IMG/VR virus record: IMGVR_UViG_2918493637_000007
Length of the DNA stretch: 64,000 bases
Reading direction: 5' to 3' (one strand)
Origin: a virus
The position numbers and the translations under genes were made by a program. The notes under the pieces were generated by a model. It saw only the letters and a list, made by a program, of their open reading frames with translations, had not been told where the DNA came from and did not search any database. This document shows, piece by piece, positions 1,331 to 63,718 of the stretch. The first letter of the stretch is position 1, and every line of letters starts with the position of its first letter.

Positions 1331-2358
1331 GCTGCGGCCCTCAAGTCAGTGCTGACTCCACTCAGCGCGCAGAACGGCTCGAGCCAGCCGTCCAGGTCCG
1401 AGAGGAGGGAGTTGAAGACAAGCGCCTCGCACTGCTCGCGCACCGCGTCCGGGTTGAACTCGGGCTTGGTGAGCTTCGGCCGCACGGGCGCGGGGATGTC
1501 GTTGTGCATCAGGTCCATGATGCGCAGGTTGCGGTAGAAGATCTCCCGCTTCTCCTTCTCGGAGCAGAAGTCGGCGAGCTTCTTGGGCACGTCGACCTTG
1601 TGGATCTCGACCGCCTCGAAGAACCCGCGCACGGTGCCGAACTTGCGCACCAGGTCGAAGGCGCCGATCTCGCCGATGCCGCCCACGCCCGGGATCTCGT
1701 CCGAGACGTCGCCCATCAGGGCCTTCGCCTCGAGATAGGCCTGCGGGCTCGGGCAGCCGCGCCACTCGATGTCCTCGACCAGGACGGAGCCGTCGGCCTG
1801 CTTGGTCCGCTTCTGCTTCATGTAGCCGACCTTCTCCGAGAAGTTGGAGTGGGTCACACGCTTCTGCTGGACGGGCGCGTGCCAGGCGACGCCGGGTTGG
1901 ACGAGCTGGAGCCAGTCCTTGTCGCCGGAGATCATCAGGATCTTGGCGCCGGCCGCGATGTCGGGCGTGTAGCGCTTCACCAGGATGCCGGCGAAGTCGT
2001 CGGCCTCGAGGTTGGCGGCCGAGAGCTGCGGCACGCCGCAGGCCTTCATGATCCGGTTGACCAGGGGCCGCTGCGAACGCCAGGAGGCGCGCACATGGGC
2101 GACCTTCTCGTCGTTCTTGGTCACGGGCTTGGCGTCGCGCGAGCCCTTGTAGCCCTCGATTTCCTTCTTCCGCCAGCTATCGCCGTCCCAGAGCAGAAGC
2201 GGGCGCAGTTGGGGATAGGTCGCGACCATCATCCTGATGGCGCGAATTGTCCCTAGAACCCCCTGCGTCTCCTGCTCCCCAACCTTGAGGACCTTGGTCG
2301 AAGTGGCAGCAAAACCGATGTTATTCACGTCGATGAGCAGATGGCCCCGGTGCTTCAT
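1327..2358 (-). CDS. 5'-3' exonuclease / flap endonuclease (PolA N-terminal, T5 D15-like)
   Basis: LLIDVNN, WRKKEIEGYKGSR, LEADDFAG, ISGDKDWLQLV, ALMGDVSDEIPGVGGIGE (H3TH motif). Confidence 0.92.
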   Translation of the reverse strand: MKHRGHLLIDVNNIGFAATSTKVLKVGEQETQGVLGTIRAIRMMVATYPQLRPLLLWDGDSWRKKEIEGYKGSRDAKPVTKNDEKVAHVRASWRSQRPLVNRIMKACGVPQLSAANLEADDFAGILVKRYTPDIAAGAKILMISGDKDWLQLVQPGVAWHAPVQQKRVTHSNFSEKVGYMKQKRTKQADGSVLVEDIEWRGCPSPQAYLEAKALMGDVSDEIPGVGGIGEIGAFDLVRKFGTVRGFFEAVEIHKVDVPKKLADFCSEKEKREIFYRNLRIMDLMHNDIPAPVRPKLTKPEFNPDAVREQCEALVFNSLLSDLDGWLEPFCALSGVSTDLRAAA

Positions 2359-2873
2359 ACGTGCCTCCAGGTGCGACCCTGCCGGATCGCGTCGACTACC
2401 GCCTTCGTCACCCCAAACTCCTTTGCGACCTTCAGAGATGTCGGATGGCCCGCGAGCCGGACCTTGATCTTGCGGGCGACCTCATCCGTGATGCTCGCGC
2501 CCGGATGCCGTTCGCCGATCGGCAGCGTGCCCATCCGCTTTCGGTCCTGGTTGTTCTCCCAGGGCGTGCCCCAGCGGAGGTTCGGAAGCTCGTTGCAGCC
2601 GCTGCCCCGGTTGCCGTGCAGCCCCTTGTGCCCTTCCGGCTTCGGTCCGACGAACGCGGTCAGCACGAGCGTGTGAACGCTGTGGTGCCGGTGCTCGCCT
2701 TCCTTCGAGAGGCAGACCCGGAGGTAGCCCTTGGGGCTCACCTGCTGGCGTAGGCAATGACCGCCTGCCTTCCGGCCGCGGCTATCGACGCGAGCGGGCT
2801 TGCGCACCCGACCCATGTCCGAGACCTCGTAGAGGTCCTCGTAGCCAACAACAGGAAGCCAATTCTCGGCCAT
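2355..2873 (-). CDS. NUMOD4-HNH homing endonuclease
   Basis: N-terminal ENWLPVVGYEDLYEVSDMGRVR (NUMOD4); HTLVLTAFVGPKP...HGN...NELPNLRWGTPWEN (HNH). Confidence 0.9.
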   Translation of the reverse strand: MAENWLPVVGYEDLYEVSDMGRVRKPARVDSRGRKAGGHCLRQQVSPKGYLRVCLSKEGEHRHHSVHTLVLTAFVGPKPEGHKGLHGNRGSGCNELPNLRWGTPWENNQDRKRMGTLPIGERHPGASITDEVARKIKVRLAGHPTSLKVAKEFGVTKAVVDAIRQGRTWRHV

Positions 2874-2895
2874 CAGAGCCTCGCTGACAGGTTAT

Positions 2896-2951
2896 GGGCG
2901 GCAGCCGGGTGAAGCTGCCGCCCAGGTGGAGGAGAGGGCGCGTGCGCCCTC
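2896..2951. other. Two GC-rich hairpins between SSB and HNH genes
   Basis: GGGCGGCAGC-8nt-GCTGCCGCCC (2896-2923) and GAGGGCG-CGTG-CGCCCTC (2934-2951). Confidence 0.55.
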
Positions 2952-2963
2952 CCGTTGCGAGGC

Positions 2964-3893: not shown

Positions 3894-3983
3894 TGTTCTG
3901 CTGCTTTCGTCTTTGGCGATTTGCGCGGAGCGCTGCTGCCGGTGCTTGGTTGCTTGCTAAGACTTTCATCTGTCGCTGCTCTG

Positions 3984-4010
3984 TTATAGCGATCACCTGT
4001 TGGGTTTTTC
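3984..4010 (-). promoter_or_regulatory. Phage-specific promoter-like motif upstream of SSB
   Basis: Minus strand GAAAAACCCAAC-AGGTGATCG-CTATAA; same 9-nt spacing as four other copies. Confidence 0.65.
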
Positions 4011-4163
4011 GCTAATTCGCGCATTCTCGAATGGGAGAATACGGGAATGGGTGCCCTCAGAAGGGCCGGTGCCGGGGCGCCGGCAGGGCCGGGCGCGGCT
4101 TCTTGATCCGGGAGCGGATCCAGAACAGGGGTCCGAGGACCAGGAGGGCGACGCCGACGACCA

Positions 4164-4754
4164 TCACTCGGACTCGGCCATCGTGCGGGCGGCCCGGGCG
4201 CCGACGCGCTCAGCGGCCGACTTGGCGTTGTCGGCCAGCTCGCGCTTGGCCGCCATCGACAGCTCGCCCTTCATCTCCTCGCGGGAGGTGGCGCCGGCCT
4301 GCACGAGCATGTCGCGCCGGTGCCGGAAGGCCTCGAGGGTCGTGTTGGCGACCTTCTCGATCTGCTTGGCCTCGTTCAGCGCCCGCTTGAAGGCGACCAC
4401 CTGCGGGTGCCGGGCGATCTTCCGCTCGACGATGCCCTCGGTGATCTTCTCGCCGAGGACGGCCATCGCCTCGCGGATCTCGCGATCCACCTTGGCTTCC
4501 TGGTTCTCGATGAGGATCTTGATGTTGTCGACCTGGCGCGAGGCCTTGGCCGCCAGCACGCCGAAGTGGGCGAACAGGGACGCCTGATCGGCCATCGCGC
4601 TCGACAGGTCGTTGAGCGAGTAGGCGAGCTTCCCCTTGAGGTCCTCCTCGGCCAGGAAGTCCTTCACCTGGACCTTGCGGACCTGGATCTGCTTCGGGGC
4701 AGGGGGCGTCGGCGGCGTTGCCGATGTCTCGTCGGTCTGGGCTTCGTCGCTCAT
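4164..4754 (-). CDS. UvsY-like recombination mediator (helical)
   Basis: DLSSAMADQASLFAHFG...ITEGIVERKIARHP...TLEAFRHRRDML pattern resembles phage UvsY-family proteins; adjacent to SSB and RecA. Confidence 0.55.
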   Translation of the reverse strand: MSDEAQTDETSATPPTPPAPKQIQVRKVQVKDFLAEEDLKGKLAYSLNDLSSAMADQASLFAHFGVLAAKASRQVDNIKILIENQEAKVDREIREAMAVLGEKITEGIVERKIARHPQVVAFKRALNEAKQIEKVANTTLEAFRHRRDMLVQAGATSREEMKGELSMAAKRELADNAKSAAERVGARAARTMAESE

Positions 4755-4757
4755 GGC

Positions 4758-5006
4758 TCAGACCCGCGGCGGGAACGACCAGGTGCCCGGCTGATCCGGG
4801 CCACCCTCGAGCACGCATTCCGGCAGCGGCTCGGGCTTCCGGCCGGGCGCGAACACCGTCAGCGAGCAGATGTCGCCGCCGTCGCCGGCCTCGAACACGC
4901 CGGTGACGATCGCCGCGTAGGGCTGATCCGAGATCGAGACGCGCTCGGCGTCCCTGGGGTGGTAGTGGACGATGCGTCCGACGCTGGGACGCTGGTGTGC
5001 GGGCAT
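4758..5006 (-). CDS. Small conserved-looking phage protein (PSVGRIVHY motif)
   Basis: ATG at 5006 gives an 82-aa MPAHQRPSVGRIVHYHP...PGTWSFPPRV downstream of an operator and promoter. Confidence 0.7.
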   Translation of the reverse strand: MPAHQRPSVGRIVHYHPRDAERVSISDQPYAAIVTGVFEAGDGGDICSLTVFAPGRKPEPLPECVLEGGPDQPGTWSFPPRV

Positions 5007-5044
5007 GGCTGCCTCCGCTGAGTGAGTAAGTGCTGACTGATCTT

Positions 5045-5070
5045 TTATAGCGAGCGCGCGTCGGGTTTTG
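5045..5070 (-). promoter_or_regulatory. Phage-specific promoter-like motif
   Basis: Minus strand CAAAACCCGAC-GCGCGCTCG-CTATAA, followed by the operator at 5024-5039. Confidence 0.7.
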
Positions 5071-5142
5071 CGTGGGTCGCGCTGGCTTCTGGTGTGGGTA
5101 GCTATGGCCATCCACAGCAAGATAAGTCAGCGCTGAATTGGT

Positions 5143-5169
5143 TTGAAAAATCGACGTTTGTGCTATCTT
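5143..5169 (+). promoter_or_regulatory. Sigma70-like promoter for the putative ncRNA
   Basis: TTGAAA (5143-5148) and extended -10 TGcTATCTT (5161-5169); operator at 5124-5139 immediately upstream. Confidence 0.5.
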
Positions 5170-5175
5170 AGGGGG

Positions 5176-5530
5176 TGAGGGACGCAGGTGGCCGCCCGCG
5201 TCCCTCGGTGTTGGTAGCTGGCAGCGCTACTCGTTACATGAGCCCGAGCGTGATGGTCACAGACCACTCACCGCTCGGGTTTCGTGTAACCGTGACCCGC
5301 AGAAGCGGGATCATCAGCACATTGCATCACCTCCTCCCCTGCCTTCTCAAGACGGCGGCGGCACTCGCCGTTAACCCTCGGTCCAAGGGGGTCGCGTAGG
5401 GAGGAGACCCAACGAGGCCAATGTAGCAGGCAACTCCGAGTCTACAAAACCGGCCGAGCGTCTCGTCCCCAACATCCACCGTTTTGCGGGGGTCGGCCGT
5501 CTCTTGTCCCCGGTATCCCCAAGAGCGCCT
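5176..5530 (+). ncRNA. Putative structured non-coding RNA with an anti-Shine-Dalgarno segment
   Basis: No credible ORF; at least six stems; G-U pairs form on the + strand (A-C mismatches on -); ATCACCTCCT at 5326-5335. Confidence 0.6.
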
Positions 5531-5584
5531 ATTGACTGACGCATTCTCGGGGCGCGTCGGCCGGTGTGGGCTTGACAGGCGCGA

Positions 5585-9471: not shown

Positions 9472-10004
9472 TCCGTCCTGAGTGTGAGGCGGCCGTTCTG
9501 CTCGATGGCTGCGCCGAGCGCGGTGAGCGCCTGGAAGGCCTGGGTCGCGTGGGCGGCTGCGGTGCCCTCGCTCCATTCGAGTTTGCGCATGAAGGCGGTC
9601 TTGAGCGTCGCCCGGTCGATGCCGGCCTTCATGTGCAGCAGCAGGTGGCAGGTGACGCGCAGGAAGGCTGGGCTCGTCGTGAACGGGTTCTCGCCGCGCG
9701 AGAGGGCGGCCGTCACCGAGATGCCGGCGCGCTCGATGCGCCCGATCAGCTCCTCGACCTTCTTGGGCAGGCCCTCGGTCAAGACGCCGGTCGCGTGCGC
9801 TTCCGTGGGACCCCGCGGGCGGGGAGGGCGCTGCGCGCGCGGCTCCTTGGGCTTGATGCCGAGCTCGGCGCGCCGCCGCGTGAGCTGCTCGGCGCCGACC
9901 TGCGCGCACTCAGCGGCGAACGGGCACGAGATGCACTCGGCCGCTTCCGCGCGATAGGCGAGGGCGAAGCCGAAGCAGCCCGGACGGAGCATCGAAGTCA
10001 GCAC
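9468..10004 (-). CDS. Hypothetical protein with N-terminal Cys cluster
   Basis: PGCFG...[11 protein letters not shown]; co-oriented with overlapping junctions. Confidence 0.65.
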
Positions 10005-10016
10005 TGACTTACTTCC

Positions 10017-10643
10017 TCAGCGAAGGATCTGCCGCGCGAGGCCTTTGACCTCGCCGTAGATGCGGTTGCGTTCGACCCGGTCCGCACCCATCAGGTCGAG
10101 GACGAGCGAGCCGGTGATGTGGCTGGGCACGCCGGTGCGGATCCCGCGGGCGTTGGCGAACTCGGCCCGGGCCTGGATCGCGGTCATCTCCTCGTAGAGC
10201 GCCGGAGGCGGGTTCGCGAGGAGCTCGACGAACTGGCGCGCCTCGGGGGAGAGGAGGGCGATGTTGCGCTCGAACTCCTGGGCGTCGCCGAGCACGTCGT
10301 CCTGGAGCGGGCTGCCGTCGGCGATCACCTCGTGCAGGTCGGAGCCGTCCTCGTCGCCGTGATCCTCGTCGAGGTCGAGGGCGTTGGAGTGGCCGATCTG
10401 CCGGTCGATCCAGGCGTTGATGTGGTTGCGCATGCCGAGCTGGAGGTAGGCCCCGAACGGCACGCCCTTGGTCGGGTCGAACTTGTCCCGGGCGATCACC
10501 CAGGCGAGCGACAGCTCCGAGACCAAGTCGGCCAGGAGCACGGTGCGCGCGCCGGCCGCGTGCGCCCGCTTCAGGTAGCGGTAGGCGGACCGCTCGACGA
10601 CCTTGCTCCAGTCGCCCCATTGGATCGGGTGGGTGTCGCGCAT
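10017..10643 (-). CDS. Phage-encoded sigma70-family factor (region 2 recognisable)
   Basis: DLVSELSLAWVIARDKFDPTKGVPFGAYLQLGMRNHINAWI matches the sigma70 region 2.2-2.4 pattern (DLxQE...AxxKFDPxxGxxFxTYA..WIR..I); LLSPEARQFVELL resembles the start of region 4. Confidence 0.75.
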   Translation of the reverse strand: MRDTHPIQWGDWSKVVERSAYRYLKRAHAAGARTVLLADLVSELSLAWVIARDKFDPTKGVPFGAYLQLGMRNHINAWIDRQIGHSNALDLDEDHGDEDGSDLHEVIADGSPLQDDVLGDAQEFERNIALLSPEARQFVELLANPPPALYEEMTAIQARAEFANARGIRTGVPSHITGSLVLDLMGADRVERNRIYGEVKGLARQILR

Positions 10644-10647
10644 GGCG

Positions 10648-11874: not shown

Positions 11875-12000
11875 CGGGTGGAACTCTCCTGGGTTGTGCG
11901 CTGGGTGCGCTCTCTGTGTGCGAGTCAGTTATCGCTGATCTCGTCGAGGGACACAAGTCAGTCCTGACTTACATTTCGGGGTCCCGCGACGATCCGGCTG

Positions 12001-14391: not shown

Positions 14392-14427
14392 AAGTTGTCT
14401 CTCCAAGTCAGTAGTGACTTACTACTG

Positions 14428-14450
14428 TATAGACGACGTAAATTGGTTAC
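14428..14450 (-). promoter_or_regulatory. Degenerate copy of the phage promoter motif upstream of cobT
   Basis: Minus strand GTAACCAAT-TTACGTCGT-CTATA (9-nt spacer), followed by the operator at 14405-14420. Confidence 0.5.
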
Positions 14451-14695: not shown

Positions 14696-14826
14696 CGCTT
14701 CCGCCTATTCCCAGGGACATGAGTCATTGCTGACTTGCTATACGCGTCAAAAATTGAGCCACCCTTTTGGGCGGCTGGCTGGCATTCCGATGTCGCGCCC
14801 GGACCGGGCGCGGTTGCGTATATGGT

Positions 14827-15327
14827 TTAGAGCGACTTCGGCACTGGGGAGACGCCCCGGCGGTCTTTAACTCGGAACAGGTCTCCGACGGCCTCGAGCT
14901 GCTCCTCGGTCGGATCAACGTCCGCGCCGCCGGTCGCCTGCCGGATCGCGCTCACGACCTTCATCTCCCCGGCCGAGACCAAGTTAGGGAAAATCTTGTC
15001 GATTTCAGCCGCGCTTATCGGCATATCGGGCTGCTGAGCGGCTAGACGGAAGAAGAAGCTCGGGTCGCAGCGTAGCGCCTTGGCCAGCACGAGGGTCTTA
15101 TTCAGCGGCACCTTCGTTTCGCCGCGCTTAAACATGGAAAGAATGTTCGGCTTGTCGTAGCCGGCGGCGAGTGCGATCTCCCGCTGATTTATGCCAAGAT
15201 CACCGAGGCTGTCGATCTGATTTCGCAGATACACAGCCATCGTCGTGTTTTCATACGGGCGCTGAACTGGCTTCGTCGTCAAATTTTTTGTCTCCTGAAC
15301 TGCTATGGTTGCTCGGTTGATCACCAT
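14827..15327 (-). CDS. XRE-family HTH regulator, candidate prophage repressor
   Basis: INQREIALAAGYDKPNILSMFKRGETKVPLNKTLVLAKALRCDP HTH pattern; true start may be ATG at 15240. Confidence 0.8.
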   Translation of the reverse strand: MVINRATIAVQETKNLTTKPVQRPYENTTMAVYLRNQIDSLGDLGINQREIALAAGYDKPNILSMFKRGETKVPLNKTLVLAKALRCDPSFFFRLAAQQPDMPISAAEIDKIFPNLVSAGEMKVVSAIRQATGGADVDPTEEQLEAVGDLFRVKDRRGVSPVPKSL

Positions 15328-15613
15328 TGTATGATCGCTTCGGTTTCGATTTTCTCGATGCTCTTGCGATCTCGATATAGCAGCTCGAGCTCGGGTTGCG
15401 ATGCAGGTATCGCGCCGGAGTCTACAAGCCTGAATTTCACGGATAAGTCAACACTGACTTAGGTTGTGCCTAATAAAATTTCTGTGTCATGCCATCTGTA
15501 GCCCTAGCCTGACGCTTCGGGTATGCGACTCGTAGCGCCCGGTGGTGTTAAGGTGGCCTAGCGAAGGCCCCGAATCAAATTGCCACCTGGGGTTGTTAGA
15601 ATTTTACTGAAGG

Positions 15614-16000
15614 TTGATCTGCTTGCGGCTGCAAGGTTGTCAGATCCGCATGGCGCGCGCCGCGCTGCGGTTATCGCTTACTGAATTGGCCGAGTGCTCA
15701 GGTGTCAGCGAAAAGACCATACGACGATGTGAAGCAGTAGACGGCCAGCCGCCGGTCGCGGACCATTCCCTCGGACTGATCGGCAAGGCGCTGAACGACC
15801 GCGGGGTGCGGTTCATGGAAGGCCGTGGTCGACAATGGGGACCGGGCTGCATTCTGGACTGGAACCCCGAGATGGGCGACCGCCCCGAGGTTCATGCGCT
15901 AATTGCGCGGGAAGGGGATCCCGATGCCGGTGGGGCGAAACTACCATGGCCGCCGCTGCCCAGACCGAAACCTCCGTCGAAGTTCGGACCGAAACGTTAA
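15614..16000 (+). CDS. XRE-family HTH regulator
   Basis: QIRMARAALRLSLTELAECSGVSEKTIRRCE...ALNDRGVRF, typical alphaproteobacterial XRE; divergent from 14827-15327. Confidence 0.8.
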   Translation: MICLRLQGCQIRMARAALRLSLTELAECSGVSEKTIRRCEAVDGQPPVADHSLGLIGKALNDRGVRFMEGRGRQWGPGCILDWNPEMGDRPEVHALIAREGDPDAGGAKLPWPPLPRPKPPSKFGPKR

Positions 16001-16216: not shown

Positions 16217-16471
16217 CCTGAAGCGTTCTGGGCACGGTCGAAGAGCCCGAACGGCCTTAGAGAACCACGATACCGCATAGCTTGTCCAGGCCTGCGGCAT
16301 GGCGTTCACCTGCGCGAACACCCGCTCCGGCCGGGGGTTCCAAAAGGCGCCGGTAGATAAATCACCGCTGACTTCTCTTGCGTCCCCGGTCCATTTTCCG
16401 GTAGCCCTTGCGTCAGCCGAGAGAATCGGTCCACGACTCGTAACGCGCTACGAGTCGCGCCACACAGGAGG

Positions 16472-16856: not shown

Positions 16857-17987
16857 GTGGAGACGGTTCATTCCGGTGGCCGGCCGCTCACGCGCGCCGC
16901 GCTCGCCGGTCGGAGACGTGCGCTCGAGGACGGGCGAACGATCTCCCGCAAGGAGCTCGCGGCCGCCGGCCGGGATGCGGCCAAGGCCTTGCGCCTGCGC
17001 CCTGCCCTGCGCGCGATCCTGTCGGCGCTCTGTGCCGTGTGGGGCGAGCAGGAGTGGGAGCGCCTGGTGGTGTGGCCCTCGAACGAGCACCTGTGCGGGA
17101 TGACAGGCCTGTCCGAGCGCGCGCTGCGCTACGGGCTGCGCGACCTGGTCGCCCTGGAGCTCGTCACGCCCCGCGACAGCGCGAACGGGAAGCGCTTCGC
17201 TGTGCGCGCCCCGGGTGGGGCGATCATCGACGCTTTCGGGTTCGACCTGACCCCGATCGTGGCGCGAAAGGGCGAATGGGCGAATGCTCTCATGGAAGCG
17301 ACCGTGAGAGATGACCACCGGCGGCGTTCGTTCGAGATTTTGACCGTCCGACGCCGGGCGGTGGCCGAGGCGCTCCACGGGCTTCTAATGCGATTTCCTC
17401 AGATTGAGGTCTCCGATCTGCTCGCGGCGCGCGAGTCCCTGGAGTTCGACACACCCAGGCGGCGAGCGGCCGGCACCGACCCGGACCTGGTGCTCGAGGC
17501 CTGGGGAGAGCTGCAGGTCATGGCAGAGGAACGCTTCTATCAAGCCGCCTCTGCCGGCAATTCCGGCCGGCACATAGAACAAGACCCCGATGCTCCTACC
17601 GATCCTTGTGCAAACGGCTCTCAAGAGGAGCCTGGGCCGATCCGTCTGCCCGACGCCGAGCTCGTCGCGGCCGCCTGCCCTGTCGCGGCCGAGATGGTTG
17701 CGAATCTCAAGACCGCGGCGGACGTCATCGAGGCCGGGCGCCTGATGCGGGGCGGGATCGGGGCGCACCCGTCGGCCTGGTCGGAGGCGTGCGAATCTCT
17801 CGGCGCGTTCCGCGCCGCCTGCCTGGTGCTGATCGTCGCCCAGCTCCACGACGACGAGACGCGCCGCGGTGAGATTCGCATCAAGAACCCGGGCGGCTAC
17901 TTCCGGCAGCTCGTGCGTTTAGCCGTAAACGGTCGCTACGGGCTCGAGGCCGAGCTCATGGCGATGCGTCGCAGGAAAATGACTTGA
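16857..17987 (+). CDS. repC: Plasmid replication initiator RepC (repABC family)
   Basis: GGRPLT N-terminus, VWPSNEHL, RDSANGKRF, FGFDLTPI, C-terminal IKNPGGYFRQL. Confidence 0.92.
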   Translation: METVHSGGRPLTRAALAGRRRALEDGRTISRKELAAAGRDAAKALRLRPALRAILSALCAVWGEQEWERLVVWPSNEHLCGMTGLSERALRYGLRDLVALELVTPRDSANGKRFAVRAPGGAIIDAFGFDLTPIVARKGEWANALMEATVRDDHRRRSFEILTVRRRAVAEALHGLLMRFPQIEVSDLLAARESLEFDTPRRRAAGTDPDLVLEAWGELQVMAEERFYQAASAGNSGRHIEQDPDAPTDPCANGSQEEPGPIRLPDAELVAAACPVAAEMVANLKTAADVIEAGRLMRGGIGAHPSAWSEACESLGAFRAACLVLIVAQLHDDETRRGEIRIKNPGGYFRQLVRLAVNGRYGLEAELMAMRRRKMT

Positions 17988-20271: not shown

Positions 20272-20302
20272 AAAAAGGGGCGACCCCAGGAGAGGCCGCC
20301 CC
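20272..20302 (-). terminator. Rho-independent terminator after the ligase-HNH operon
   Basis: Minus strand GGGGCGGCC-8nt-GGTCGCCCC-TTTTT (one G-U pair). Confidence 0.7.
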
Positions 20303-20388
20303 GCACACACACAGAAAGGAAACCCGAACACGTCGGTCCCACCCGACGGTTCTACGGGTCTCCTAACGGTAAGTCAACGCTGACTTGC

Positions 20389-20964: not shown

Positions 20965-20995
20965 CCTGTCTTCGTAGGTCAGTGCTGACTTACCG

Positions 20996-23577: not shown

Positions 23578-23619
23578 GGCTCCTCTCTGCTGTGCGTGTG
23601 TCTGTGTCTCGCTCGCTGA

Positions 23620-23645: not shown

Positions 23646-23667
23646 GTGTCACCACTGACTTATTGCG

Positions 23668-26882: not shown

Positions 26883-27143
26883 TCAGGCCTCGAGGATTTC
26901 GTAGCCCGTCAGGTTGCCCTTAAAGTAAGTCATCGCTGACTGATCTCCGCGGGCGACCTTGATGGTGAACTGGTCGGCGGCGACGAGCCGCCCGGTCCGG
27001 GTGGTCGCGCCGAAATGCACGGTGATCTGCCGGCCGATCGCCGCCTTCAGGTCGTCCTGGTGGTTCCAGGTGCGCGGCTTCATCGGCTGCCGAGGCGCGC
27101 TCGGACCACGACGCTCGATCACGGGGCGGGTCTGGGGCTTCAT
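26883..27143 (-). CDS. Hfq/Sm-fold-like small protein
   Basis: QDDLKAAIGRQITVHF...TGRLVAADQFTIKV...SAMTYFKGNL aligns by eye with the Hfq Sm1 (G.I..FDQF.I) and Sm2 (MVYKHAI) motifs. Confidence 0.6.
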   Translation of the reverse strand: MKPQTRPVIERRGPSAPRQPMKPRTWNHQDDLKAAIGRQITVHFGATTRTGRLVAADQFTIKVARGDQSAMTYFKGNLTGYEILEA

Positions 27144-28858: not shown

Positions 28859-28933
28859 GTCGACTCCAGGGTCGGTGGGGAAAGAGAGCGAGCGCACATA
28901 AGTAAGCACTGACTTACTTCAGGACGCAAGCGG

Positions 28934-33375: not shown

Positions 33376-33492
33376 TCGGGGCTCCTGTGGCCGGGCAGAG
33401 CCGGCATCGGTAAGTCAGTGGTGACTTATCATAGCCGAGGAGGAGCCGGCGATCCAGAGGCTCGGGAGCGCTTCCTACCCCGGATGCCCAAC

Positions 33493-35009: not shown

Positions 35010-35055
35010 AGCTTCCTCTCTCATGTGATAAGTCAGTGCTGACTGACTATCCGGG

Positions 35056-35403: not shown

Positions 35404-35482
35404 TGCGAGATCTCCCGAACGGGGTGAGTAAGCAGTGACTTATTATGCCCGAAGCGCCCCGTTCTGAACACCCCTCCCCCGG

Positions 35483-39800: not shown

Positions 39801-42714
39801 TGCCGTCGATCGCGGTCTCGGCCGCGGTCTCGAGCTTCAGCCCCGTCGGCGCGCCCGGCACGTCGGTGTCGATGATCCGGTTCGACACCCACACCTTCTG
39901 CTCGGGGCCGACGTTCAGGCCCTGCTTGCCGAACTGGTCGTAGGCGGCGACCCGGACGAAGTAGAAGGTCTCGGGCGTCACCTTGAACGAGACGAGGGTG
40001 GAGTTGCCGTCGTAGGCCGGCTTGGTCGCCGCGGGGTCGAAGCCCGAGGCCTGCTCGAGCCACACGAGCACGCCCGCGAAGTCCGGGTCGGCCGGCCGGT
40101 CGAAGGACACGAATAGGCTCTCGGTCGTCGTGGTGATCGAGGGCGAGATCACGTCCGGGGCGGCGTTCTCGCACACGAGCGTGGCCGGCGCGCTCTCGCG
40201 GCCGAGCACGTCCCGGGCCCGGACCTGGACCCAGAACTTGCGGCGCGGGCCGCCGTCGGCCGCGTTGGCGTCGAGGCCGTAGGTGAAGGTGGCGCCGGGC
40301 GCGACCCAGTCGGACACGAGCTCCTGCGTGTCGACGTCGAGGATGCGCACCACGAAGTCGATCGCGTAGGGGATCACGGCGTCCGGCCAGGTGACGTCCC
40401 AGTCGAGCACCAGGTCCTTGCCGGCGAAGGCGCCGTCGCCGGCGTCCTGCCCGCGCACGCGCAGGTTCGCGACGGCCGGCCCGGGCTGGCCTTCCCAGCC
40501 CGCGACCGTGAAGGCGAGCGAGGCCGGCGCCGAGCGCTTCCCCTGGCCCTGGCCGGTCACGGAGGCCGTCCAGTCGCCAGCCTTGAGGTCGGGCAGCGTG
40601 ATCGAGGGGTTCGAGGTGACGCCCATGTCGACGTCGCCGTCCGGGCCGGACAGGAGCACGCTGTAGGCGTTGCTCATCCAGTCGGAGGCCGGCGTCCAGG
40701 ACAGGAGCACCTCGATGTGCGGCAGGCCGTCCCGGAACGTCTGGGTCTCGGTCGCCTTCAGGTTCACCGGCGGCAGGATCTTGGTCGACGGCCGCACGTA
40801 GCTCGGCGGCGCGAGGAAGACGTTCTGCTCGATGCGGGCATACTTCGTCGGGTCGTGGAACAGGGCCGCGACCTTGAAGGTGTTCTTCTTCGGCTCCGTG
40901 ACCGAGAGCACGCGATACTGGCGCGGGGCCACATCCGTGCTCGAGATCGCCCACATGGCGCCGGGCGCGATCTCGCCCTCGAGCTCGGCGTCGAGGACGG
41001 CCGTGACGTTGCCCTGCTCCCAGCCGATCACACCCCGGGTCTCGATGACGCCGGCCTTGTTCACCACCGAGATCTTGTAGGTGGCCGTGGCCGTCGGCTC
41101 GAAGGCCTTGTCGAGGTTCAGCCGCGAGGGCGAGTGCGAGATCACTCGGCCGCCGATGCGGGTCTGAGCCTTGCGCGGATCGGCGATGGCCACGATGTGC
41201 CCGGGCCGCAGCGGGTCGGCCGCGAGCGCGTCGAGACCCATCTCGAACTCGACGCTCTCGGTGGCCGTGTAGTCGGTGTCGAGCGTCCAGGCGCCGATCC
41301 GGTGCGCGAGCCCGCGCGAGGTGCAGCCGACCGCCTGGATGTCGGTCTGGCGCCAGCCGAACTTGTCCAGGCCCTCGTCGTGCTGCACGACCTCGATGGC
41401 GTTCCGGTAGAAGTCCTCCGGGTCGTTCCACGAGACCATCGCGACCGTGTTGCGGGTCTTCTTGGCCGTGCGGGAATACTTGAACTGGCCGCCGATCACG
41501 TTGGCCGGGGCGAGCAGCTTCACCGGGTCGGCCGGCTTGTCGGCGACCGCGAACACCTGGCCGACCGACCAGAAGGCCATGCCGCGGAAGGCCGCGGTGA
41601 TCTGCTGGAGGACCTTGTAGGCCTCGTCGCGCGAGTTGATGACGCCGTTGAAGGTGTAGCGCGGCTCCTGCCCACCCTTGCCGTCGGCGACCAGCTCGTC
41701 GCAGTAGCCGGCGATCTCGTAGAGGCCGAACTTGTCGATCTTGGTCTCGTCGATGAACTCGCCGAGGCCGTAGCGGTCGTTGGTCAGCAGGTCGTAGAAG
41801 ATCCACGCCGGGTTGTTGGTCCAGGCGCGCTTGAAGGTGCCGTCCCAGAAGCCCGTGTAGGTCCGGGCCTCGGGGTCGTAGTTCGAGGGCACCTGGATGA
41901 TGAGGCCCTTCACGTCGTAGTAGCGCGAGGGGATCGAGCCGCCGAACTGCTGGGCGTCGAGCTCGAGGGCCACGAGTGCCGTGTGGGGATAGGTGAACTG
42001 CCCCTCGACGATCGTCGTGTAGCTCTCCCAGATCAGGCCGGCCTGCATGTAGTCGACGGTCGGATCCGGGCTCTCCCGGCGCACGCGCAGGCTGTAGGGG
42101 TGGCCGCCCGGCGGCAGGCTGACGACGCTCGCGCGCTCGTAGGGCGAGGTGGTCTTCTGCTGGAGCAGCAGCTCGCGGTGGACCTCGGTCCACTGGCCGC
42201 CGTTCGGGCGGATCTCGATCATGTAGTCGAGGTCGTTCGGCAGCAGGGAGCCGTTCTTCGGGTTCTGCACCACGAGGGTCGGGATCTGGCAGACGACGCG
42301 CACCGAGGTCGCGTTCTCGTCGGCGATCGTCCGGACCGGCGGCTCCTGGGACTTCTTGATCTCGACGCCGACCGAGTAGGTGGTCTCGGACGAGGCCATG
42401 CCGATCAGCGGCGGCTGCTCGGGCTCGCCGTGCCGCTCCTGCCAGGTCACGCCCACGAAGTTGAAGGTGCCGTCGGCGTTCTGGAGCGAGGTCTGGTCGA
42501 AGAAGATCGACTGCGCGCCGTTGACCAGGCCGACGATCTCGCCCTCGCCCAGCACCTCGACGAGGCGCGCCTTGGCGTCCGAGCGCAGCGTGTTCGAGGC
42601 GTCCGACTTGCCCGCGCTCGAGCCGCCGAGCTTCGCCGAGCTGCCGCCGCCCGAGCCGCTCACGTCAGCGCTGACTGACTCCAGCGCGCGCAGGTCCTCG
42701 ATCATCGCGTCCAT
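36820..42714 (-). CDS. Tail tip / host-specificity protein J (with Fn3-like domains and ITADKI repeats)
   Basis: GEGEIVGL, WTNNPAWIFYDLL, RYTFNG, GCTSRGLAHR, lambda J-like; 1964 aa. Confidence 0.93.
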   Translation of the reverse strand: MDAMIEDLRALESVSADVSGSGGGSSAKLGGSSAGKSDASNTLRSDAKARLVEVLGEGEIVGLVNGAQSIFFDQTSLQNADGTFNFVGVTWQERHGEPEQPPLIGMASSETTYSVGVEIKKSQEPPVRTIADENATSVRVVCQIPTLVVQNPKNGSLLPNDLDYMIEIRPNGGQWTEVHRELLLQQKTTSPYERASVVSLPPGGHPYSLRVRRESPDPTVDYMQAGLIWESYTTIVEGQFTYPHTALVALELDAQQFGGSIPSRYYDVKGLIIQVPSNYDPEARTYTGFWDGTFKRAWTNNPAWIFYDLLTNDRYGLGEFIDETKIDKFGLYEIAGYCDELVADGKGGQEPRYTFNGVINSRDEAYKVLQQITAAFRGMAFWSVGQVFAVADKPADPVKLLAPANVIGGQFKYSRTAKKTRNTVAMVSWNDPEDFYRNAIEVVQHDEGLDKFGWRQTDIQAVGCTSRGLAHRIGAWTLDTDYTATESVEFEMGLDALAADPLRPGHIVAIADPRKAQTRIGGRVISHSPSRLNLDKAFEPTATATYKISVVNKAGVIETRGVIGWEQGNVTAVLDAELEGEIAPGAMWAISSTDVAPRQYRVLSVTEPKKNTFKVAALFHDPTKYARIEQNVFLAPPSYVRPSTKILPPVNLKATETQTFRDGLPHIEVLLSWTPASDWMSNAYSVLLSGPDGDVDMGVTSNPSITLPDLKAGDWTASVTGQGQGKRSAPASLAFTVAGWEGQPGPAVANLRVRGQDAGDGAFAGKDLVLDWDVTWPDAVIPYAIDFVVRILDVDTQELVSDWVAPGATFTYGLDANAADGGPRRKFWVQVRARDVLGRESAPATLVCENAAPDVISPSITTTTESLFVSFDRPADPDFAGVLVWLEQASGFDPAATKPAYDGNSTLVSFKVTPETFYFVRVAAYDQFGKQGLNVGPEQKVWVSNRIIDTDVPGAPTGLKLETAAETAIDGTLTAVVRASWDKSGSENLAGYEVEVAVEGGTWVRERVTDPAWERHGLAPGQTYAVRVRAYNGSDTVGTWSDPVAIVAAVNETAPDPVTGLAVVAAFETAVLSWVDPAQADLAYVELFAAAAQNAQRASLGRAVAGAQTFIDKTLPAGQTRFYWARTVNTSGTQSEVFAGPVQAVSPVITKEQIAGQILDQTSFADGLTAIGVVDTLPALADYDGPLVLLLKTDGKLYQIEDGKWEPVVGNTTAGGIVGQIKGTQIEDGAISTEKMAANSIDADRLVANSITAGLIAAGAIKAEALAAGAITADKIAVGLSSGNLLFNADFLGGVSGFALHGASDGVAPAITASTTFAPPGMGAALVARADTPAAGAYADLVLERRLPAGWDEAYPVAPGQRYELSVYASITRAQAQVILLFLDASRQPLAAASGDVHAAAPGVGPLETMARVGVFGTAPAGAAFVVPVQRAIWIGQAAPQVAWTGLYLGKALANQTAFAPWVANASTVIDGGSIATNSLSADRIVAGTITADQIKGGTITGDRIAAGTITGDNIKAGSIQADRIRIGGEVSLASWLGGPDATQIDGGHIAANSIAANTLKIGARGLQTVGLDFSADKEDATLSWSAGTILFTGDDGHAVAAAVASGSIATGGKHAFAWWSRAQQGVVQAGLENYAAILADPDAVLLCSYDGFAGLNPIYGGTIIDGSRINTGSITADQIKAGAIQASHIAAGAITAEKIAAGEVTADKLGAGTITADLIFLGSANFQLDARNKLMRIVANNGVEQVSIGNVGVFEGDGKTEIFGMEVRDKNGQAVLKITDDETSLDGSYIRKATIDGASIKDASIQSAQIGNAAITNAKIGDLQVDTVKIAGKAVSQTVANADPGKVTSVPIAARELTSIFQILAYRKGDGGTPHPQNASTGALTVDYSADGGQTWTVLRGVVNSFSYLYSVSAGGSFQFMTPTVLVFSWEPKQIGNLILRVTDSNGEPNVGDVYLSVTELAR

Positions 42715-44947: not shown

Positions 44948-44976
44948 ATCATAAGTCAGCGCTGACTTATCGTCCA
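44948..44976 (-). promoter_or_regulatory. Sigma70-like promoter with the operator in its spacer (gene L)
   Basis: TGGACG-17nt-TATGAT enclosing the operator at 44953-44968. Confidence 0.6.
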
Positions 44977-50607: not shown

Positions 50608-50694
50608 GCTGCCCTTCTGCGCTCGTGAAAATGACTTGCCGAGCGGATGCACGGAAAGTCAGTGGTGACTTATCTTGCCCCGAAAGGCAAGGGC

Positions 50695-51225: not shown

Positions 51226-51300
51226 CTCAAATCTCCTTCGCCGAGCCGTCGTCTGCCTTCGCGGATCGTCTCTCGCGAAGATGAATCAGTGGTGACTTAC

Positions 51301-55171: not shown

Positions 55172-55205
55172 GATGGTAAGTCAGTGGTGACTTATTGTCG
55201 AGACC

Positions 55206-56108: not shown

Positions 56109-56241
56109 TCCCAATTCTCCTTGGCGACTGCCCGTGCCGGGCATAAGTCATCGGTGACTTACAATAGGATATCCGGCACGGGACTCGTCGCCAAGCAAAA
56201 TCAGTCAGCACTGACTGATTTTTTGCACCACGCAAGGGGTT

Positions 56242-58907: not shown

Positions 58908-58936
58908 ATAATAAGTCAGCGCTGACTTGTACGCAA
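58908..58936 (-). promoter_or_regulatory. Sigma70-like promoter with the operator filling its spacer (portal)
   Basis: TTGCGT-17nt-TATTAT; the spacer contains the perfect operator at 58913-58928. Confidence 0.65.
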
Positions 58937-58938: not shown

Positions 58939-60243
58939 TCAGACCGACACCCCAAGGACGCTGATGCGCCGGACTGGGAACTTGAAGTCGATGCAGTAGC
59001 CGATCGCGTCCATCGGGTGCTCGACGCCCTGCGACTTGTCCACCTCGCGGGTGCCCGGCTTGTAGATGGTCTGCTCGAAGCCCGCGATGACGTGCTTGCA
59101 CCTCCGGTCGACCCGCAGCTTCACCATGCCGTCGGCCGCCTTGAGCATCCGGTTCACCGCGTTGACGCGGTCGGCCACGGGCGGGTGCTTGCGCTTATAC
59201 TGGAGCTTGCGGAAGCCGCCCTGGCGCAGGATGTCGAGATCGCTCTCGCCGCGCCCGTGCCCGCGCTGCGCGCCGGCCGGATCCGGGAAGATGATGACCG
59301 ACTTCTGCTGCTTGAAGTAGCGCCGGTCGAGTTCGAGGCAGACCTCGGCGGTGGACGAGTTGAACAGGATCGCCTCGCCGACCACCCACACCTCGCCGTT
59401 GTCTTGCGGCTGCATGATGACCGAGGACATCGGGTCGATGTTGAAGTCCTGGCCCACCCAGATCGGCAGGTGTGGGTTGAAGGCGAAGTCGCCGACGTGG
59501 ATGTTGCGGTCGAAGGCGTAGTAGACGCGCCCCGACATGGTCTCGAAGCTCGCCTCGAACTCCTGGCGGAACGACTTCTCGTCCATGTTCTGGCGCGCGG
59601 ACGCGATCTCCTCGAGCGGGATGAACGGCGAGGTGATCGTCGGAAACTGCCAGGACTTGTGGTCGTTCTTGCGCAGCCGGCCCTTGCTGTCGCGGTAGGT
59701 CTCGCCGCGCTGGCCCTTCATGTAGACGTCGTAGAGCCAGTTGTAGGCCTTGGGCGTCCCGATGATGATCGCCTCACCCCGCGTCGAGGTGAGCGTCGGG
59801 TAGAGGACCTTGAACCAGGTGTCGGGCTCGATGTCCTGGGCCTCGTCGACGATCACCAGGTTGAGCGCGACGCCGCGCAGGCTGTCCGGCTTGTCCGCGC
59901 CCTTCAGCTCGATGCGCGAGCCGTTGCGCAGCCGCACCGTCATCCGGGTCTCGTTGATCGAGCGGATCCACTTCTTCGGGATGGAGTCCTTCAGCTCGTC
60001 CCAGAGGATCGAGCGGGCCATCCCGTAGGTCGGGGCCACATACCAGATGAGCTGCTTGGTCTTGGCCGCGGCCGCCCGGACCGCGAGGATGCGCGCGAGC
60101 TGCGTCTTGCCCCAGCGCCGGCCGGCCACGACCACGCGCACGCGGCGCGGGTCCTTGAACACCTTCGACTGGCCGCGGTGGAGCGTGAACTCGTGCGCAG
60201 GCGCGCCGCCGAGCCCGGGCAGCAGGGCGGCGGCGCTAGTCAT
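58939..60243 (-). CDS. terL: Terminase large subunit
   Basis: VVAGRRWGKT, YVAPTYGMAR, VIVDEAQD, IGTPKAYN, GQDFNIDP, HPMDAIGY. Confidence 0.95.
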   Translation of the reverse strand: MTSAAALLPGLGGAPAHEFTLHRGQSKVFKDPRRVRVVVAGRRWGKTQLARILAVRAAAAKTKQLIWYVAPTYGMARSILWDELKDSIPKKWIRSINETRMTVRLRNGSRIELKGADKPDSLRGVALNLVIVDEAQDIEPDTWFKVLYPTLTSTRGEAIIIGTPKAYNWLYDVYMKGQRGETYRDSKGRLRKNDHKSWQFPTITSPFIPLEEIASARQNMDEKSFRQEFEASFETMSGRVYYAFDRNIHVGDFAFNPHLPIWVGQDFNIDPMSSVIMQPQDNGEVWVVGEAILFNSSTAEVCLELDRRYFKQQKSVIIFPDPAGAQRGHGRGESDLDILRQGGFRKLQYKRKHPPVADRVNAVNRMLKAADGMVKLRVDRRCKHVIAGFEQTIYKPGTREVDKSQGVEHPMDAIGYCIDFKFPVRRISVLGVSV

Positions 60244-60919
60244 CGTCGCCGTCCTCGATCACCTCTTCCTCGCCGAGGGCGGCGATGGCCGCCTCGTCGG
60301 TCTCGTCGAGGATCTCGGCGTCGTCGGCCTCCTGGGCGTCGCGGCGCGCCTTGATCTCGGCGTCGGTGAGGTCGCGGATCACGAGCTGCGGCAGCTCGCG
60401 GTCATCCACCTCGTCGTGGGCGTCGAGCAGGGTGAAGCGCTCGTCGCGCGCGGCCACGACGATCTTCATGGCGCGCTCCAGCGCCTTCAGGTTCTTGTCC
60501 TCGGTGGAGAACGGCCGGTCCTCCTGCTTGGCCTTGGCGACGAGCGCCATGGCCTGCTGGGCGAGGATCGTCGTCCAGTTGAGGTGCTCGGACCGGGCCT
60601 TCTCGATCTTCTGCTTGCGCTCGGCCGTCAGCTCCTCGGCCGTCTTCTCGGCGGCCTTCACGGTGGCCGCGGTGTTGGCCTTGGCGACCTCGTGGGCGCG
60701 CGAGCCCCGGCGGATCCCGGCGCGCTTGATGCGCTTGGCCAGGGTGTCGGGCTTGATCTTGAACCGGGCGCAGATCTCCGAGGCGTCCGCGGTGCCGAGC
60801 TCCCACAGGTCCTTGATCTGCGCCCACTCAGCGGGCGTCAGGCGGCGGCCGGCGTCGCTCGCATCCTCGTTTTCGAGGGCGGCGTCGTCTCCCGGAACCT
60901 GATCCTCACCAGTCAGCAC
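60236..60919 (-). CDS. terS: Terminase small subunit (N-terminal HTH)
   Basis: Immediately upstream of terL; LTPAEWAQIKDLWELG...SEICARFKIKPDTLAKRI. Confidence 0.75.
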   Translation of the reverse strand: MLTGEDQVPGDDAALENEDASDAGRRLTPAEWAQIKDLWELGTADASEICARFKIKPDTLAKRIKRAGIRRGSRAHEVAKANTAATVKAAEKTAEELTAERKQKIEKARSEHLNWTTILAQQAMALVAKAKQEDRPFSTEDKNLKALERAMKIVVAARDERFTLLDAHDEVDDRELPQLVIRDLTDAEIKARRDAQEADDAEILDETDEAAIAALGEEEVIEDGDDD

Positions 60920-60950
60920 TTACTTACTCCATCGGGCGTGGCTCGGGTAT

Positions 60951-62247: not shown

Positions 62248-62342
62248 TGGTAGCCCAGCGACTGCGCGAGCAGCATCGCGGCGATAATCGAGGCGCCGAG
62301 CGCCAGGCCGAGCACGGCCTCGAGGCGGTCGCGCGGTCTCAC
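62244..62342 (-). CDS. 32-aa single-TM peptide
   Basis: GTG at 62342: MRPRDRLEAVLGLALGASIIAAMLLAQSLGYQ; fills the gap with overlaps at both ends. Confidence 0.45.
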   Translation of the reverse strand: MRPRDRLEAVLGLALGASIIAAMLLAQSLGYQ

Positions 62343-62614
62343 CTGGCGTCCCCGGTCCGTGGGCTCGTCCAGCGGGTGACGATCGGGCAGCTCTGGCCGA
62401 GCGTGGCGCCGACGACGGCCTTGCGGACGTGCTCCGGCATGTCCTCGAGGCGCAGGTCCTCCAGGATCAGGGCGCCGACGGAGAGGGTCAGCAGCACGGA
62501 CCGGGCCGAGGCCTTCACCACGAGCTGCTCGAGGCTGGTCTCGACGAAGTGGGTCCCCTGCGCCTGGACGTTGGTGGCCGGGCCCGTGGGGCGGATCAGG
62601 ACGACGGTGGTCAT
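62339..62614 (-). CDS. Hypothetical protein
   Basis: 91-aa ORF with overlapping junctions. Confidence 0.55.
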   Translation of the reverse strand: MTTVVLIRPTGPATNVQAQGTHFVETSLEQLVVKASARSVLLTLSVGALILEDLRLEDMPEHVRKAVVGATLGQSCPIVTRWTSPRTGDAR

Positions 62615-63252
62615 GGTGCGGCCTTCTCGATGTCGACCCGCTCGCGGAAGCGCTTGGTCAGGGTGAGGGAGGGGGCGAGCTCGGCCGTCAGATCGGTGTG
62701 GGTCGTGGCGACCATCAGCGTCCGGCCCTGCCGGCGCGCGACCTTCTGGATATTGAAGGCGACGACCTTGGCCGTGACCCGGTCGAGCACGGCGCCGAAC
62801 TCGTCGGCGATCCAGACGTCGGCGCCGGACTCCAGCACCTTCGCGAGCTTCAGCCGGTAGCGCTGGCCGTCGGAGAGCTCCGAGGGCTTGCGGATGTAGA
62901 TCCAGGCGTCCGAGATGCCGGCGAGCGCCAGCAGGTGGGTCGCCTCGGTCATCGACGCGCCGACCTGCTCGATCACCGGGCGGTCATCGAGCACGATCTC
63001 GTTCAGGTCGGCGACCTTAAGGCCGCCCGCGCGCATCTGCGCGGCGAGCTCCTTCAGGAGCAGCGACTTGCCCGAGCCCGACTGCCCGGTGATGTAGACG
63101 ACGTCGGCCGGCCGGACCTCGACCTCGAGGCCGTCGTAGATCACGAACTCCTTGTCGGAGAGGCCTAGGCCGAAGCCCTCGGCGACCTCGAGCACGCGCG
63201 GGGTCCGCCCCACCGAGGAGGTGAAGGCCTTCGAGATCCGGTAGACGCTCAC
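62611..63252 (-). CDS. Stand-alone ABC-type ATPase
   Basis: GQSGSGKS, ELSDGQRYR, WIADEF, VATTH; no permease nearby. Confidence 0.9.
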   Translation of the reverse strand: MSVYRISKAFTSSVGRTPRVLEVAEGFGLGLSDKEFVIYDGLEVEVRPADVVYITGQSGSGKSLLLKELAAQMRAGGLKVADLNEIVLDDRPVIEQVGASMTEATHLLALAGISDAWIYIRKPSELSDGQRYRLKLAKVLESGADVWIADEFGAVLDRVTAKVVAFNIQKVARRQGRTLMVATTHTDLTAELAPSLTLTKRFRERVDIEKAAP

Positions 63253-63695
63253 AGCGCGTCCTCCGGGCCGTCCATCAGGACGACCTCGTTGCCGTCGCGC
63301 ATGTTCTCCAGGCCGAACTCGGCGATGTCCTGGAGCGCCTGGTTGAGCATCACGGCGCCGCCCGAGAACAGCAGCGCGGCCTCGTGGTCGCTCTTGCCGG
63401 GCGGGAGGATGACGTGCTGCTCGATGCGACTCTCGTCGATGTTCCAGCCGATCAGGCAGAGCCCGTGCAGCCGGCCAGCGCGGTAGTCCTCGAGCAGCTC
63501 GGTGAGCGCCTCGATCGCCTGCTTGTCGCGCTTCGGCGGTCGGACGCGCTTCGGGGCGGCCCCGGTCTCGGGCGCGGGCTCGTAGGGCTTGCGCGAGAAG
63601 ATGTGGAACACCTTCGGCGTCGTCGGGGCGGCCGCAGCCGCCTCGTCGGCCACCGCCTTCAGGCGCTTGCGGAGTTCGTCGAGGGCATCGCTCAT
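63249..63695 (-). CDS. Hypothetical protein
   Basis: 148-aa co-oriented ORF. Confidence 0.65.
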   Translation of the reverse strand: MSDALDELRKRLKAVADEAAAAAPTTPKVFHIFSRKPYEPAPETGAAPKRVRPPKRDKQAIEALTELLEDYRAGRLHGLCLIGWNIDESRIEQHVILPPGKSDHEAALLFSGGAVMLNQALQDIAEFGLENMRDGNEVVLMDGPEDAL

Positions 63696-63718
63696 GGGCG
63701 TGTCAGTCCTGACTTAAC

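Follow-up and report, generated by a model that had tools for sequence, protein, structure and literature searches.

What binds a palindrome that recurs from one gene junction to the next along a phage genome, and what would it control there? The question is raised by a 64,000-nucleotide stretch of viral DNA (IMG/VR record IMGVR_UViG_2918493637_000007; hereafter the window), in which a first-pass annotation had noticed about 28 copies of such a palindrome and had proposed that one dimeric protein silences essentially every transcription unit through them. Sequence comparison indicates that the window belongs to a Methylobacterium virus that is also maintained as a plasmid: it covers about one half of a RepC phage-plasmid of ~117 kb from the RHEph10/pLM21S1 family. 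A circular Methylobacterium oryzae plasmid of 116.8 kb matches it at 94% identity, and pAMS5a is a more distant relative; the Rhizobium phage RHEph10 and the plasmid-like prophage pLM21S1 belong to the same family as these two plasmids (PMC4447125). The reading that we favour, at a probability of roughly 0.55, is that the palindromes are operators of a single dimeric helix-turn-helix (HTH) repressor encoded by the element itself, most probably the XRE protein at 14827-15327.

Distribution of the palindrome in the window and its relatives

We found four exact copies of AAGTCAGNNCTGACTT (AAGTCAG-NN-CTGACTT), at 9995, 11955, 44953 and 58913, and none in 100 shuffles. When up to three mismatches are allowed, the window holds 27 matches (Table 1), against 0.98 expected and a maximum of three in any shuffle, which comes close to the count made at first pass. 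The half-site AAGTCAG alone is present in 25 copies where 4.1 are expected. In a blind search for gapped palindromes the same motif takes first place in the window, the M. oryzae plasmid and pAMS5a alike, and each of the coordinates named in the first-pass annotation (1343, 15445, 26927, 42662, 44953, 51283 and 58913) holds a site.

The sites are found in replication and morphogenesis modules alike, and 19 of the 27 lie mostly outside genes (binomial P about 1e-17), despite over-long gene calls that count 94% of the window as coding. An intergenic placement in both modules had been claimed before and is borne out, as are copies within coding sequence at 1343, 26927 and 42662, which are the truly intragenic ones. 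A position matrix gives the conserved unit as an 18-bp palindrome, T-M-AGTCA-N4-TGACT-K-A, whose central 4 bp vary (G-YR-C or G-YR-G). Its half-sites stand one helical turn apart, with centres separated by 9-10 bp (AGTCA-N4-TGACT). Within the palindrome, the half that lies upstream in gene orientation is the better kept; orientation bias is found in the flanks alone, and the upstream flank is A/R-rich and orientation-specific in three genomes.

Three other identities for the motif were rejected. Distances to the start codon vary from 0 to about 117 nt, which does not fit a fixed-distance start-associated sequence. The centre is GYRC in Methylobacterium and ATAT in RHEph10, which does not fit a motif that is itself a -10 box. 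Finally, the consensus half-site, AGTCA or TGACT, lacks the CcrM methylation site GANTC, and only a few variants contain it.

If the palindrome were the site of a host factor, it should be as frequent on the host chromosome as on the element, and the first-pass annotation had named that outcome as one that would speak against its proposal. Equal frequency was not found. In the nearest genome (6.7 Mb, 40% shared words), counting sites with at most two mismatches, 39 of 41 lie on a phage-plasmid contig of ~115 kb and only two in the other 6.6 Mb. Because of this concentration on the phage-plasmid contig we exclude a host-factor site and regard the sites as element-specific.

The palindrome is also a property of the family. 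Site counts are 47 for the M. oryzae plasmid and 54 for pAMS5a, and relatives in Methylobacterium, Rhizobium, Pararhizobium, Shinella and Cupriavidus each carry about 45-55 drifted copies at matching positions. In RHEph10 (60% G+C) the version is tc-ARTMAA-TA-TTKAYT-ka, with 47 matches to the degenerate pattern against 5.7 in shuffles, and the Pararhizobium plasmid shares this version. In the Shinella plasmid the motif reads TAAGTAAG..CTTACTTA, and a relative with a TrfA replicon in Cupriavidus, a member of the Betaproteobacteria, has AGTCAG-YR-CTGACT-GACT. Junctions that carry a site in both RHEph10 and the window are those before the portal, gene L, PhoH, DnaB, CobT and CobS genes and those on both sides of the XRE gene.

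Table 1. Palindromes (strand not assigned; mismatches to the consensus given) and other features of the window
Feature	Coordinates	Strand	Context
Palindrome, 1 mismatch	1343..1358		inside 3' end of 5'-3' exonuclease gene 1327-2358; 12 nt before ATG of 818-1330
Palindrome, 3 mismatches	5024..5039		5 nt past CTATAA of CCGAC-N9-CTATA promoter; 17 nt before ATG at 5006
Palindrome, 1 mismatch	5124..5139		divergent gap adjoining plus-strand structured region 5175-5530
Palindrome, perfect	9995..10010		fills gap after sigma factor gene
Palindrome, perfect	11955..11970		upstream of CobS/MoxR ATPase gene; abutted by indel relative to M. oryzae plasmid
Palindrome, 1 mismatch	14405..14420		6 nt past CTATAC box; 13 nt before ATG of CobT-like gene
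Palindrome, 2 mismatches	14721..14736		between XRE terminator and small gene 14447-14695
Palindrome, 1 mismatch	15445..15460		divergent gap between XRE gene and second HTH gene; about 65 nt upstream of CTATAT box of XRE promoter, no overlap
Palindrome, weak, 2 mismatches	16359..16374		about 100 nt upstream of ribbon-helix-helix (RHH)-repC operon
Palindrome, 1 mismatch	20371..20386		left border of extra gene 20389-20964
Palindrome, 1 mismatch	20976..20991		right border of extra gene 20389-20964; after ligase gene
Palindrome, 3 mismatches	23646..23661		ends 6 nt upstream of CCGAC in CCGAC-N9-CTATAG promoter, WGR gene
Palindrome, 2 mismatches	26927..26942		inside small gene 26883-27143; 47 nt before ATG of DnaB-like helicase
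Palindrome, 1 mismatch	28900..28915		upstream of PhoH gene; RHEph10 site at same position
Palindrome, 1 mismatch	33412..33427		36 nt before ATG of 32980-33375
Palindrome, 1 mismatch	35030..35045		upstream of lysis-region gene starting near 35009
Palindrome, 3 mismatches	35426..35441		directly past CATAAT box; 22 nt before ATG of 35056-35403
Palindrome, 2 mismatches	42662..42677		inside 5' end of 1964-aa tail protein gene
Palindrome, perfect	44953..44968		spacer of TGGACG-17-TATGAT (44976-44948), before minor tail protein L
Palindrome, 1 mismatch	50656..50671		after tail tube gene and its hairpin
Palindrome, 3 mismatches	51283..51298		begins 2 nt past -10 of TGGACG-17-TAGAAT (51329-51301), over tail tube gene start site
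Palindrome, 1 mismatch	55178..55193		spacer of TCGACA-17-TACCAT (55201-55173), after capsid gene; then G+C hairpin
Palindrome, 2 mismatches	56145..56160		capsid leader; tip of long flanking stem
Palindrome, 2 mismatches	56202..56217		capsid leader; extended to ~30-bp palindrome
Palindrome, perfect	58913..58928		spacer of TTGCGT-17-TATTAT (58936-58908), before portal gene
Palindrome, 2 mismatches	60910..60925		start of terS-like gene 60236-60919
Palindrome, 2 mismatches	63700..63715		fills 23-nt gap after ParB/Srx-like gene
Phage sigma factor (Sigma70_r2)	10017..10643	-	behind palindrome-bearing junctions
Intrinsic terminator	14757..14776	-	directly after XRE gene, giving a separate transcription unit
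XRE/Cro-CI-type HTH protein	14827..15327	-	likely start M30, 15240; best candidate for palindrome-binding repressor
Second HTH (HTH_31) gene	15650..16000	+	divergent from XRE gene; Methylobacterium relatives only
RepC plasmid replication initiator	16857..17987	+	strand opposite to lytic genes

Promoter context and the case for a DNA site

Three junctions of the window (before the portal gene, before gene L and after the capsid gene) carry host-type promoters with the palindrome in their spacer. A consensus scan finds only three sigma70-like matches on the gene strand in the whole window, all three of which overlap or abut a palindrome, and it recovered the gene L promoter independently. At its own portal and gene L junctions RHEph10 has the -35 boxes TTGACG and TTGGCA. 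The earlier claims that the palindrome fills the promoter spacers of the portal gene and gene L and sits at the start site of the tail tube gene were thus correct.

The promoters at the head of early and replication units form a second class, CCRAC-N9-CTATA. Here the palindrome core begins 2-7 nt past the CTATA box, over the start point, in 7-8 sites per genome, and the mirror orientation never occurs; the site at 23646 is exceptional in lying just upstream of a promoter of this type. In pAMS5a the class reads GAAACGCCG-N9/10-GCTATAA and resembles a -35/-10 pair at near-normal spacing. It apparently also heads the XRE gene in the window and in RHEph10.

Judged from the sequence, a position in the polymerase footprint at variable register is typical of repressors rather than activators, and because the spacing from CTATA box to core varies we favour steric occlusion over a stereospecific activator. 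Could the palindrome nevertheless be a positive element, at which an activator or a partner of the sigma factor docks to serve lytic promoters, with P1 Lpa and T4 MotA boxes as models? The element does encode a sigma factor of its own, a site stands at nearly every transcription unit, and the orientation-specific upstream flank would suit such a role; late promoters of P1 have an inverted repeat near -22. Against this, the sites stand within the spacer or cover the start point. Good host-type -35/-10 hexamers flank several of the late sites and should leave an activator unneeded there, and other sites are intragenic or occupy gaps too small for a promoter. We consider an activator site unlikely.

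The repeats might also work not as DNA but in RNA, as hairpins for processing, stability or translation control at the starts of cistrons. Many sites do lie 0-60 nt before start codons. However, the way in which the half-sites change does not fit a paired stem. In four genomes, one-sided departures number 46-154 against 2-15 compensatory ones, and two-sided changes are as frequent as independence predicts. The commonest RHEph10 variant, AGTAAA..TTGATT, breaks the would-be stem, and pair 6-13 is Watson-Crick in only 29 of 70 sites. The stem would moreover be short and AT-rich with a tiny loop, the distance to the start codon is not fixed, and sites in promoter spacers would stay untranscribed from those promoters. 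Because half-site changes are not compensatory we read the palindrome as a DNA site and reject the hairpin as its general role; a function in RNA throughout is very improbable. Half-sites that decay independently and stand one helical turn apart look instead like the trace of a symmetric DNA-binding dimer.

The capsid gene leader (56100-56235, minus strand) is a local case. It has a very strong predicted fold (-63.6 kcal/mol, z = -6.95) in which both of its sites lie at the tips of longer stems, one palindrome being enclosed by a flanking stem of ~20 bp that ends just before the ribosome-binding site. In pAMS5a the capsid-leader stems match, with different flanking sequence. An RNA processing or stability element may here be laid on top of the DNA site.

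The candidate binder and the proposed regulation

The window encodes five candidate DNA-binding proteins: the XRE protein, the second HTH protein, an RHH-like protein before repC, the sigma factor and a weak winged helix-turn-helix (wHTH) protein near terS. Only the XRE protein is conserved throughout, with homologues in 7 of 7 relatives. For the second HTH protein we found no homologue in RHEph10, and the corresponding gap is only about 400 bp long in RHEph10, Pararhizobium and Shinella. In Cupriavidus, TrfA takes the place of the RHH-RepC module. Nowhere are the sites more closely grouped than around the XRE gene (14405, 14721 and 15445), whose promoter is overlapped by no site. Genome comparison therefore makes the XRE protein the best candidate for the binder, favoured over the other HTH, RHH and wHTH proteins. 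The first-pass annotation had picked the same protein and had pointed to site 15445 upstream of its gene; comparison favours the choice, but that site lies off the XRE promoter.

Other properties of the XRE protein are consistent with this assignment. In Cupriavidus its gene is divergent from the early lytic operon and codirectional with the MipZ/ParA-like and trfA genes, the layout to be expected of a maintenance repressor. Its best structural matches are weak (DNA-binding domain of the P22 C2 repressor, E 0.14), and it matches PHROG families of transcriptional regulators and repressors at 1.6e-4. Where XRE homologues occur on non-phage plasmids, a 6-N4-6 palindrome with the geometry of the window motif lies a short way upstream of the homologue's gene. 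On the plasmids of Lichenihabitans, Cereibacter and Ruegeria these palindromes read AGCGAA-TGCA-TTCGCT and TGYAGC-N4-GCTGCR, at 19935-19950 of the extracted locus L013 and at about 19960-19985 of L014 and L015.

Several observations weigh against the reading that we favour. The window XRE protein itself matches Pfam HTH_3 below threshold (E 0.16); its homologues match HTH_31 (1.9e-5, Cupriavidus) and HTH_3 (0.0055, RHEph10). Homologues with a nearly identical recognition helix (P-N-x-x-x-M) have upstream palindromes of differing sequence. Among alphaproteobacterial members it is the lytic strand that carries the XRE gene, behind a CTATA-type promoter like those of the early genes, and phages of the RHEph10 type, which carry the gene, were nevertheless isolated as infective phages. 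The repC operon, for its part, is preceded by a weak site (16359). Finally, no promoter could be recognised at about half of the sites, some of which fill gaps of ~20 nt (63700, 9995).

We also considered whether the specificity of binding could be read from the recognition helix and rejected this, as P-N-x-x-x-M is common to homologues with quite different upstream palindromes. The first residue of the helix differs between motif variants (P, S, A).

A different protein of the element might bind the palindrome, for example a ParB-domain protein acting like KorB, in which case the sites would have a part in global plasmid-type control, in partition or in compacting the DNA, and not in classical phage immunity. 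The family does have two ParB-domain genes and a parA gene, and in the M. oryzae plasmid a strong site lies in the promoter of a ParB-like gene (TTGACA-18-TACCAC); KorB binds 12 palindromic operators dispersed over RK2. However, the ParB-like genes open the packaging module on the lytic strand, the 7-N4-7 geometry suits Cro/CI-type dimers, and the sites are densest around the XRE gene, not the par genes. We hold a binder of this kind to be decidedly improbable, and return to the XRE protein.

How might an XRE repressor act? In the RepC plasmid state it would occupy about 50 sites across the ~117 kb of the genome, of which the window contains 27. At early and replication promoters RNA polymerase would be blocked by repressor bound over the start point, just past the CTATA box, and at host-type late promoters by repressor bound in the -35/-10 spacer. 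At junctions without a promoter the repressor would possibly be a roadblock; by analogy with the stoperators of L5, such sites may stop elongation or may simply be weak. The XRE gene, with a site-free promoter and a terminator of its own, would continue to be expressed, as would the parA operon, which in the M. oryzae plasmid has no palindrome. That the sites repress, that the XRE protein binds them and that some are roadblocks we infer from this arrangement of sites and genes.

One part of the first-pass proposal, that control is direct rather than through a cascade, did not survive: the sigma factor gene (10017-10643) lies behind palindromes, and there is the second promoter class, CCRAC-N9-CTATA. 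By analogy with P1, direct control of late units and a cascade probably coexist.

How repression would be lifted is a related question. The prophage pLM21S1 was not induced by mitomycin C (PMC4447125, PMC5537653). In the XRE protein, the Pfam search found no peptidase family such as LexA-like S24, and the ~60 C-terminal residues are without a match. Because the protein lacks a peptidase domain and pLM21S1 does not respond to mitomycin C, induction probably needs an antirepressor or some other signal. A small gene next to the XRE gene (14447-14695, minus strand) is a candidate for the antirepressor, as its position recalls that of coi in P1. It is conserved among the alphaproteobacterial relatives and has the motif SG-HP-x-G, whereas a counterpart in Cupriavidus is doubtful; it gave no family match and no HTH match. 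We also weighed its product as a possible Cro-like binder of the palindrome.

Features of a different kind mark the divergent gap that separates the XRE and HTH_31 genes. Direct repeats of TTGCGAT (15364, 15396) overlap the XRE promoter and could be operators of the HTH_31 protein itself. The HTH_31 gene has a counterpart of 52% identity in pAMS5a and is missing from the gene tables of both Methylobacterium relatives.

Cassette borders, gene content and comparison with known systems

Dispersed repeats can also be places where genomes recombine, and the palindromes might mainly be joints at which gene cassettes move between related phages. The gene at 20389-20964 (191 aa, no assigned function) lies between two sites (20371 and 20976); neither the M. 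oryzae plasmid nor a ~94% relative from a metatranscriptome has it, and site 11955 is adjoined by a two-gene indel of the M. oryzae plasmid. Yet of about six indels only two reach a site, and homing endonuclease insertions account for another two; a joint role is a by-product of any dispersed repeat, and it leaves the overlap with promoters unexplained. As the main function of the repeats this is scarcely credible, although they may act as cassette joints in addition to binding a repressor.

Nearly all genes of the window are on the minus strand. They include virion genes (terminase, portal, capsid, tape measure and lambda-like tail proteins) and, outside the virion set, genes for a DnaE of the element's own, for a DnaB-like helicase and a ligase, for a CobT/CobS-like pair and for the sigma factor. 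A NUMOD4 plus HNH homing endonuclease (2355-2873, minus strand) is an insertion relative to the M. oryzae plasmid, which has a GIY-YIG nuclease near its PhoH gene that the window lacks. In the Cupriavidus plasmid (NZ_CP090528.1) the order of the lytic genes is retained, as are the XRE gene and the palindromes, but TrfA and a MipZ/ParA-like gene stand in place of RepC; its counterpart of the window gene 26883-27143 is annotated as RNA chaperone Hfq.

The ~94% relative comes from a freshwater metatranscriptome, in which multi-kb contigs reach a depth of about 100 over replication genes (window 4001-12000 and 20272-24000). The depth is even over lytic genes, and the material, available as contigs only, could be DNA. 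No match was found to 13.3-20 kb, the immunity and replicon region, which suggests that this relative carries a different immunity/replicon module.

A wider picture can be drawn, in which one small XRE repressor acts directly on about 50 operators, virion units included, across phage-plasmids of Alpha- and Betaproteobacteria with two replicon types and a shared AGTCA half-site, with possible cross-immunity and with the repeats doubling as cassette joints and as tips of RNA hairpins in the capsid leader. We put this forward tentatively, as possible but doubtful. In the literature that we found on the RHEph10/pLM21S1 family there is no mention of palindromic repeats. The logic of a dispersed repressor is already known from other phages; the sequence and the phage family are new.

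The closest parallel is P1, in which the single repressor C1 has 22 operators dispersed over the plasmid-prophage, including control of replication and of the late activator Lpa (PMC8546580). Like P1, the present element would be a plasmid-prophage with one repressor at many operators genome-wide, and the small gene beside the XRE gene would correspond to coi, which lies beside c1 and encodes an antirepressor. Unlike the palindrome described here, the P1 operators are 17-bp and asymmetric, and C1 is unrelated to XRE proteins. Late genes of P1 are controlled indirectly through Lpa, whereas here the late junctions themselves carry a site; there are also about twice as many sites, on a RepC replicon.

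In L5, a Cluster A mycobacteriophage, more than 20 sites occur genome-wide in promoters and short intergenic spaces, early and late, and a block of both initiation and elongation has been proposed (PMC9283540). The L5 sites are 13-bp, asymmetric, bound by a monomer and functional in one orientation only, whereas the palindromic core here suits a dimer, and the hosts are unrelated. With an 18-bp palindromic core, half-sites that decay independently and an orientation bias in the flanks only, the present sites differ from L5 stoperators in the strict sense.

Three further systems share parts of the design. The c repressor of phiC31 binds an AT-richer palindrome of ~17 bp at many intergenic sites of a G+C-rich temperate phage, but that phage integrates into the chromosome, its repeats are mainly in the early region, and the repressor is of another family. 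Among Cro-CI repressors of the P22 C2 and 434 type, the operators of P22 are 18-bp palindromes with a non-contacted central 4 bp. This geometry is the one seen here, and the best, though weak, solved relatives of the XRE protein are P22 C2 DNA-binding domains. Lambdoid phages differ in having only two operator clusters and a repressor with a cleavable C-terminal domain, whereas no peptidase domain was found in the XRE protein. In RK2 (IncP), KorA and KorB have dispersed palindromic operators at varying positions relative to many promoters; there the binders are KorA and a ParB-family protein on a conjugative plasmid, and here the element is a phage.

What would set the present system apart from all of these is an 18-bp palindromic site for a Cro/CI-type dimer, in about 50 copies, at virion-gene junctions, and kept in proteobacteria of two classes and on replicons of two types. 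Phage-plasmids like RHEph10 are widespread among rhizobia, Methylobacterium and relatives. The palindrome would provide a map of the element's transcription units and of its immunity system; it names one candidate repressor and predicts relatives that are homo-immune. It would also add an alphaproteobacterial case to what appears to be a recurring rule, that of a plasmid-prophage governed by one repressor at many dispersed operators. If this is true, the repressor is a palindrome-binding dimer, unlike the monomeric or asymmetric systems of P1 and L5.

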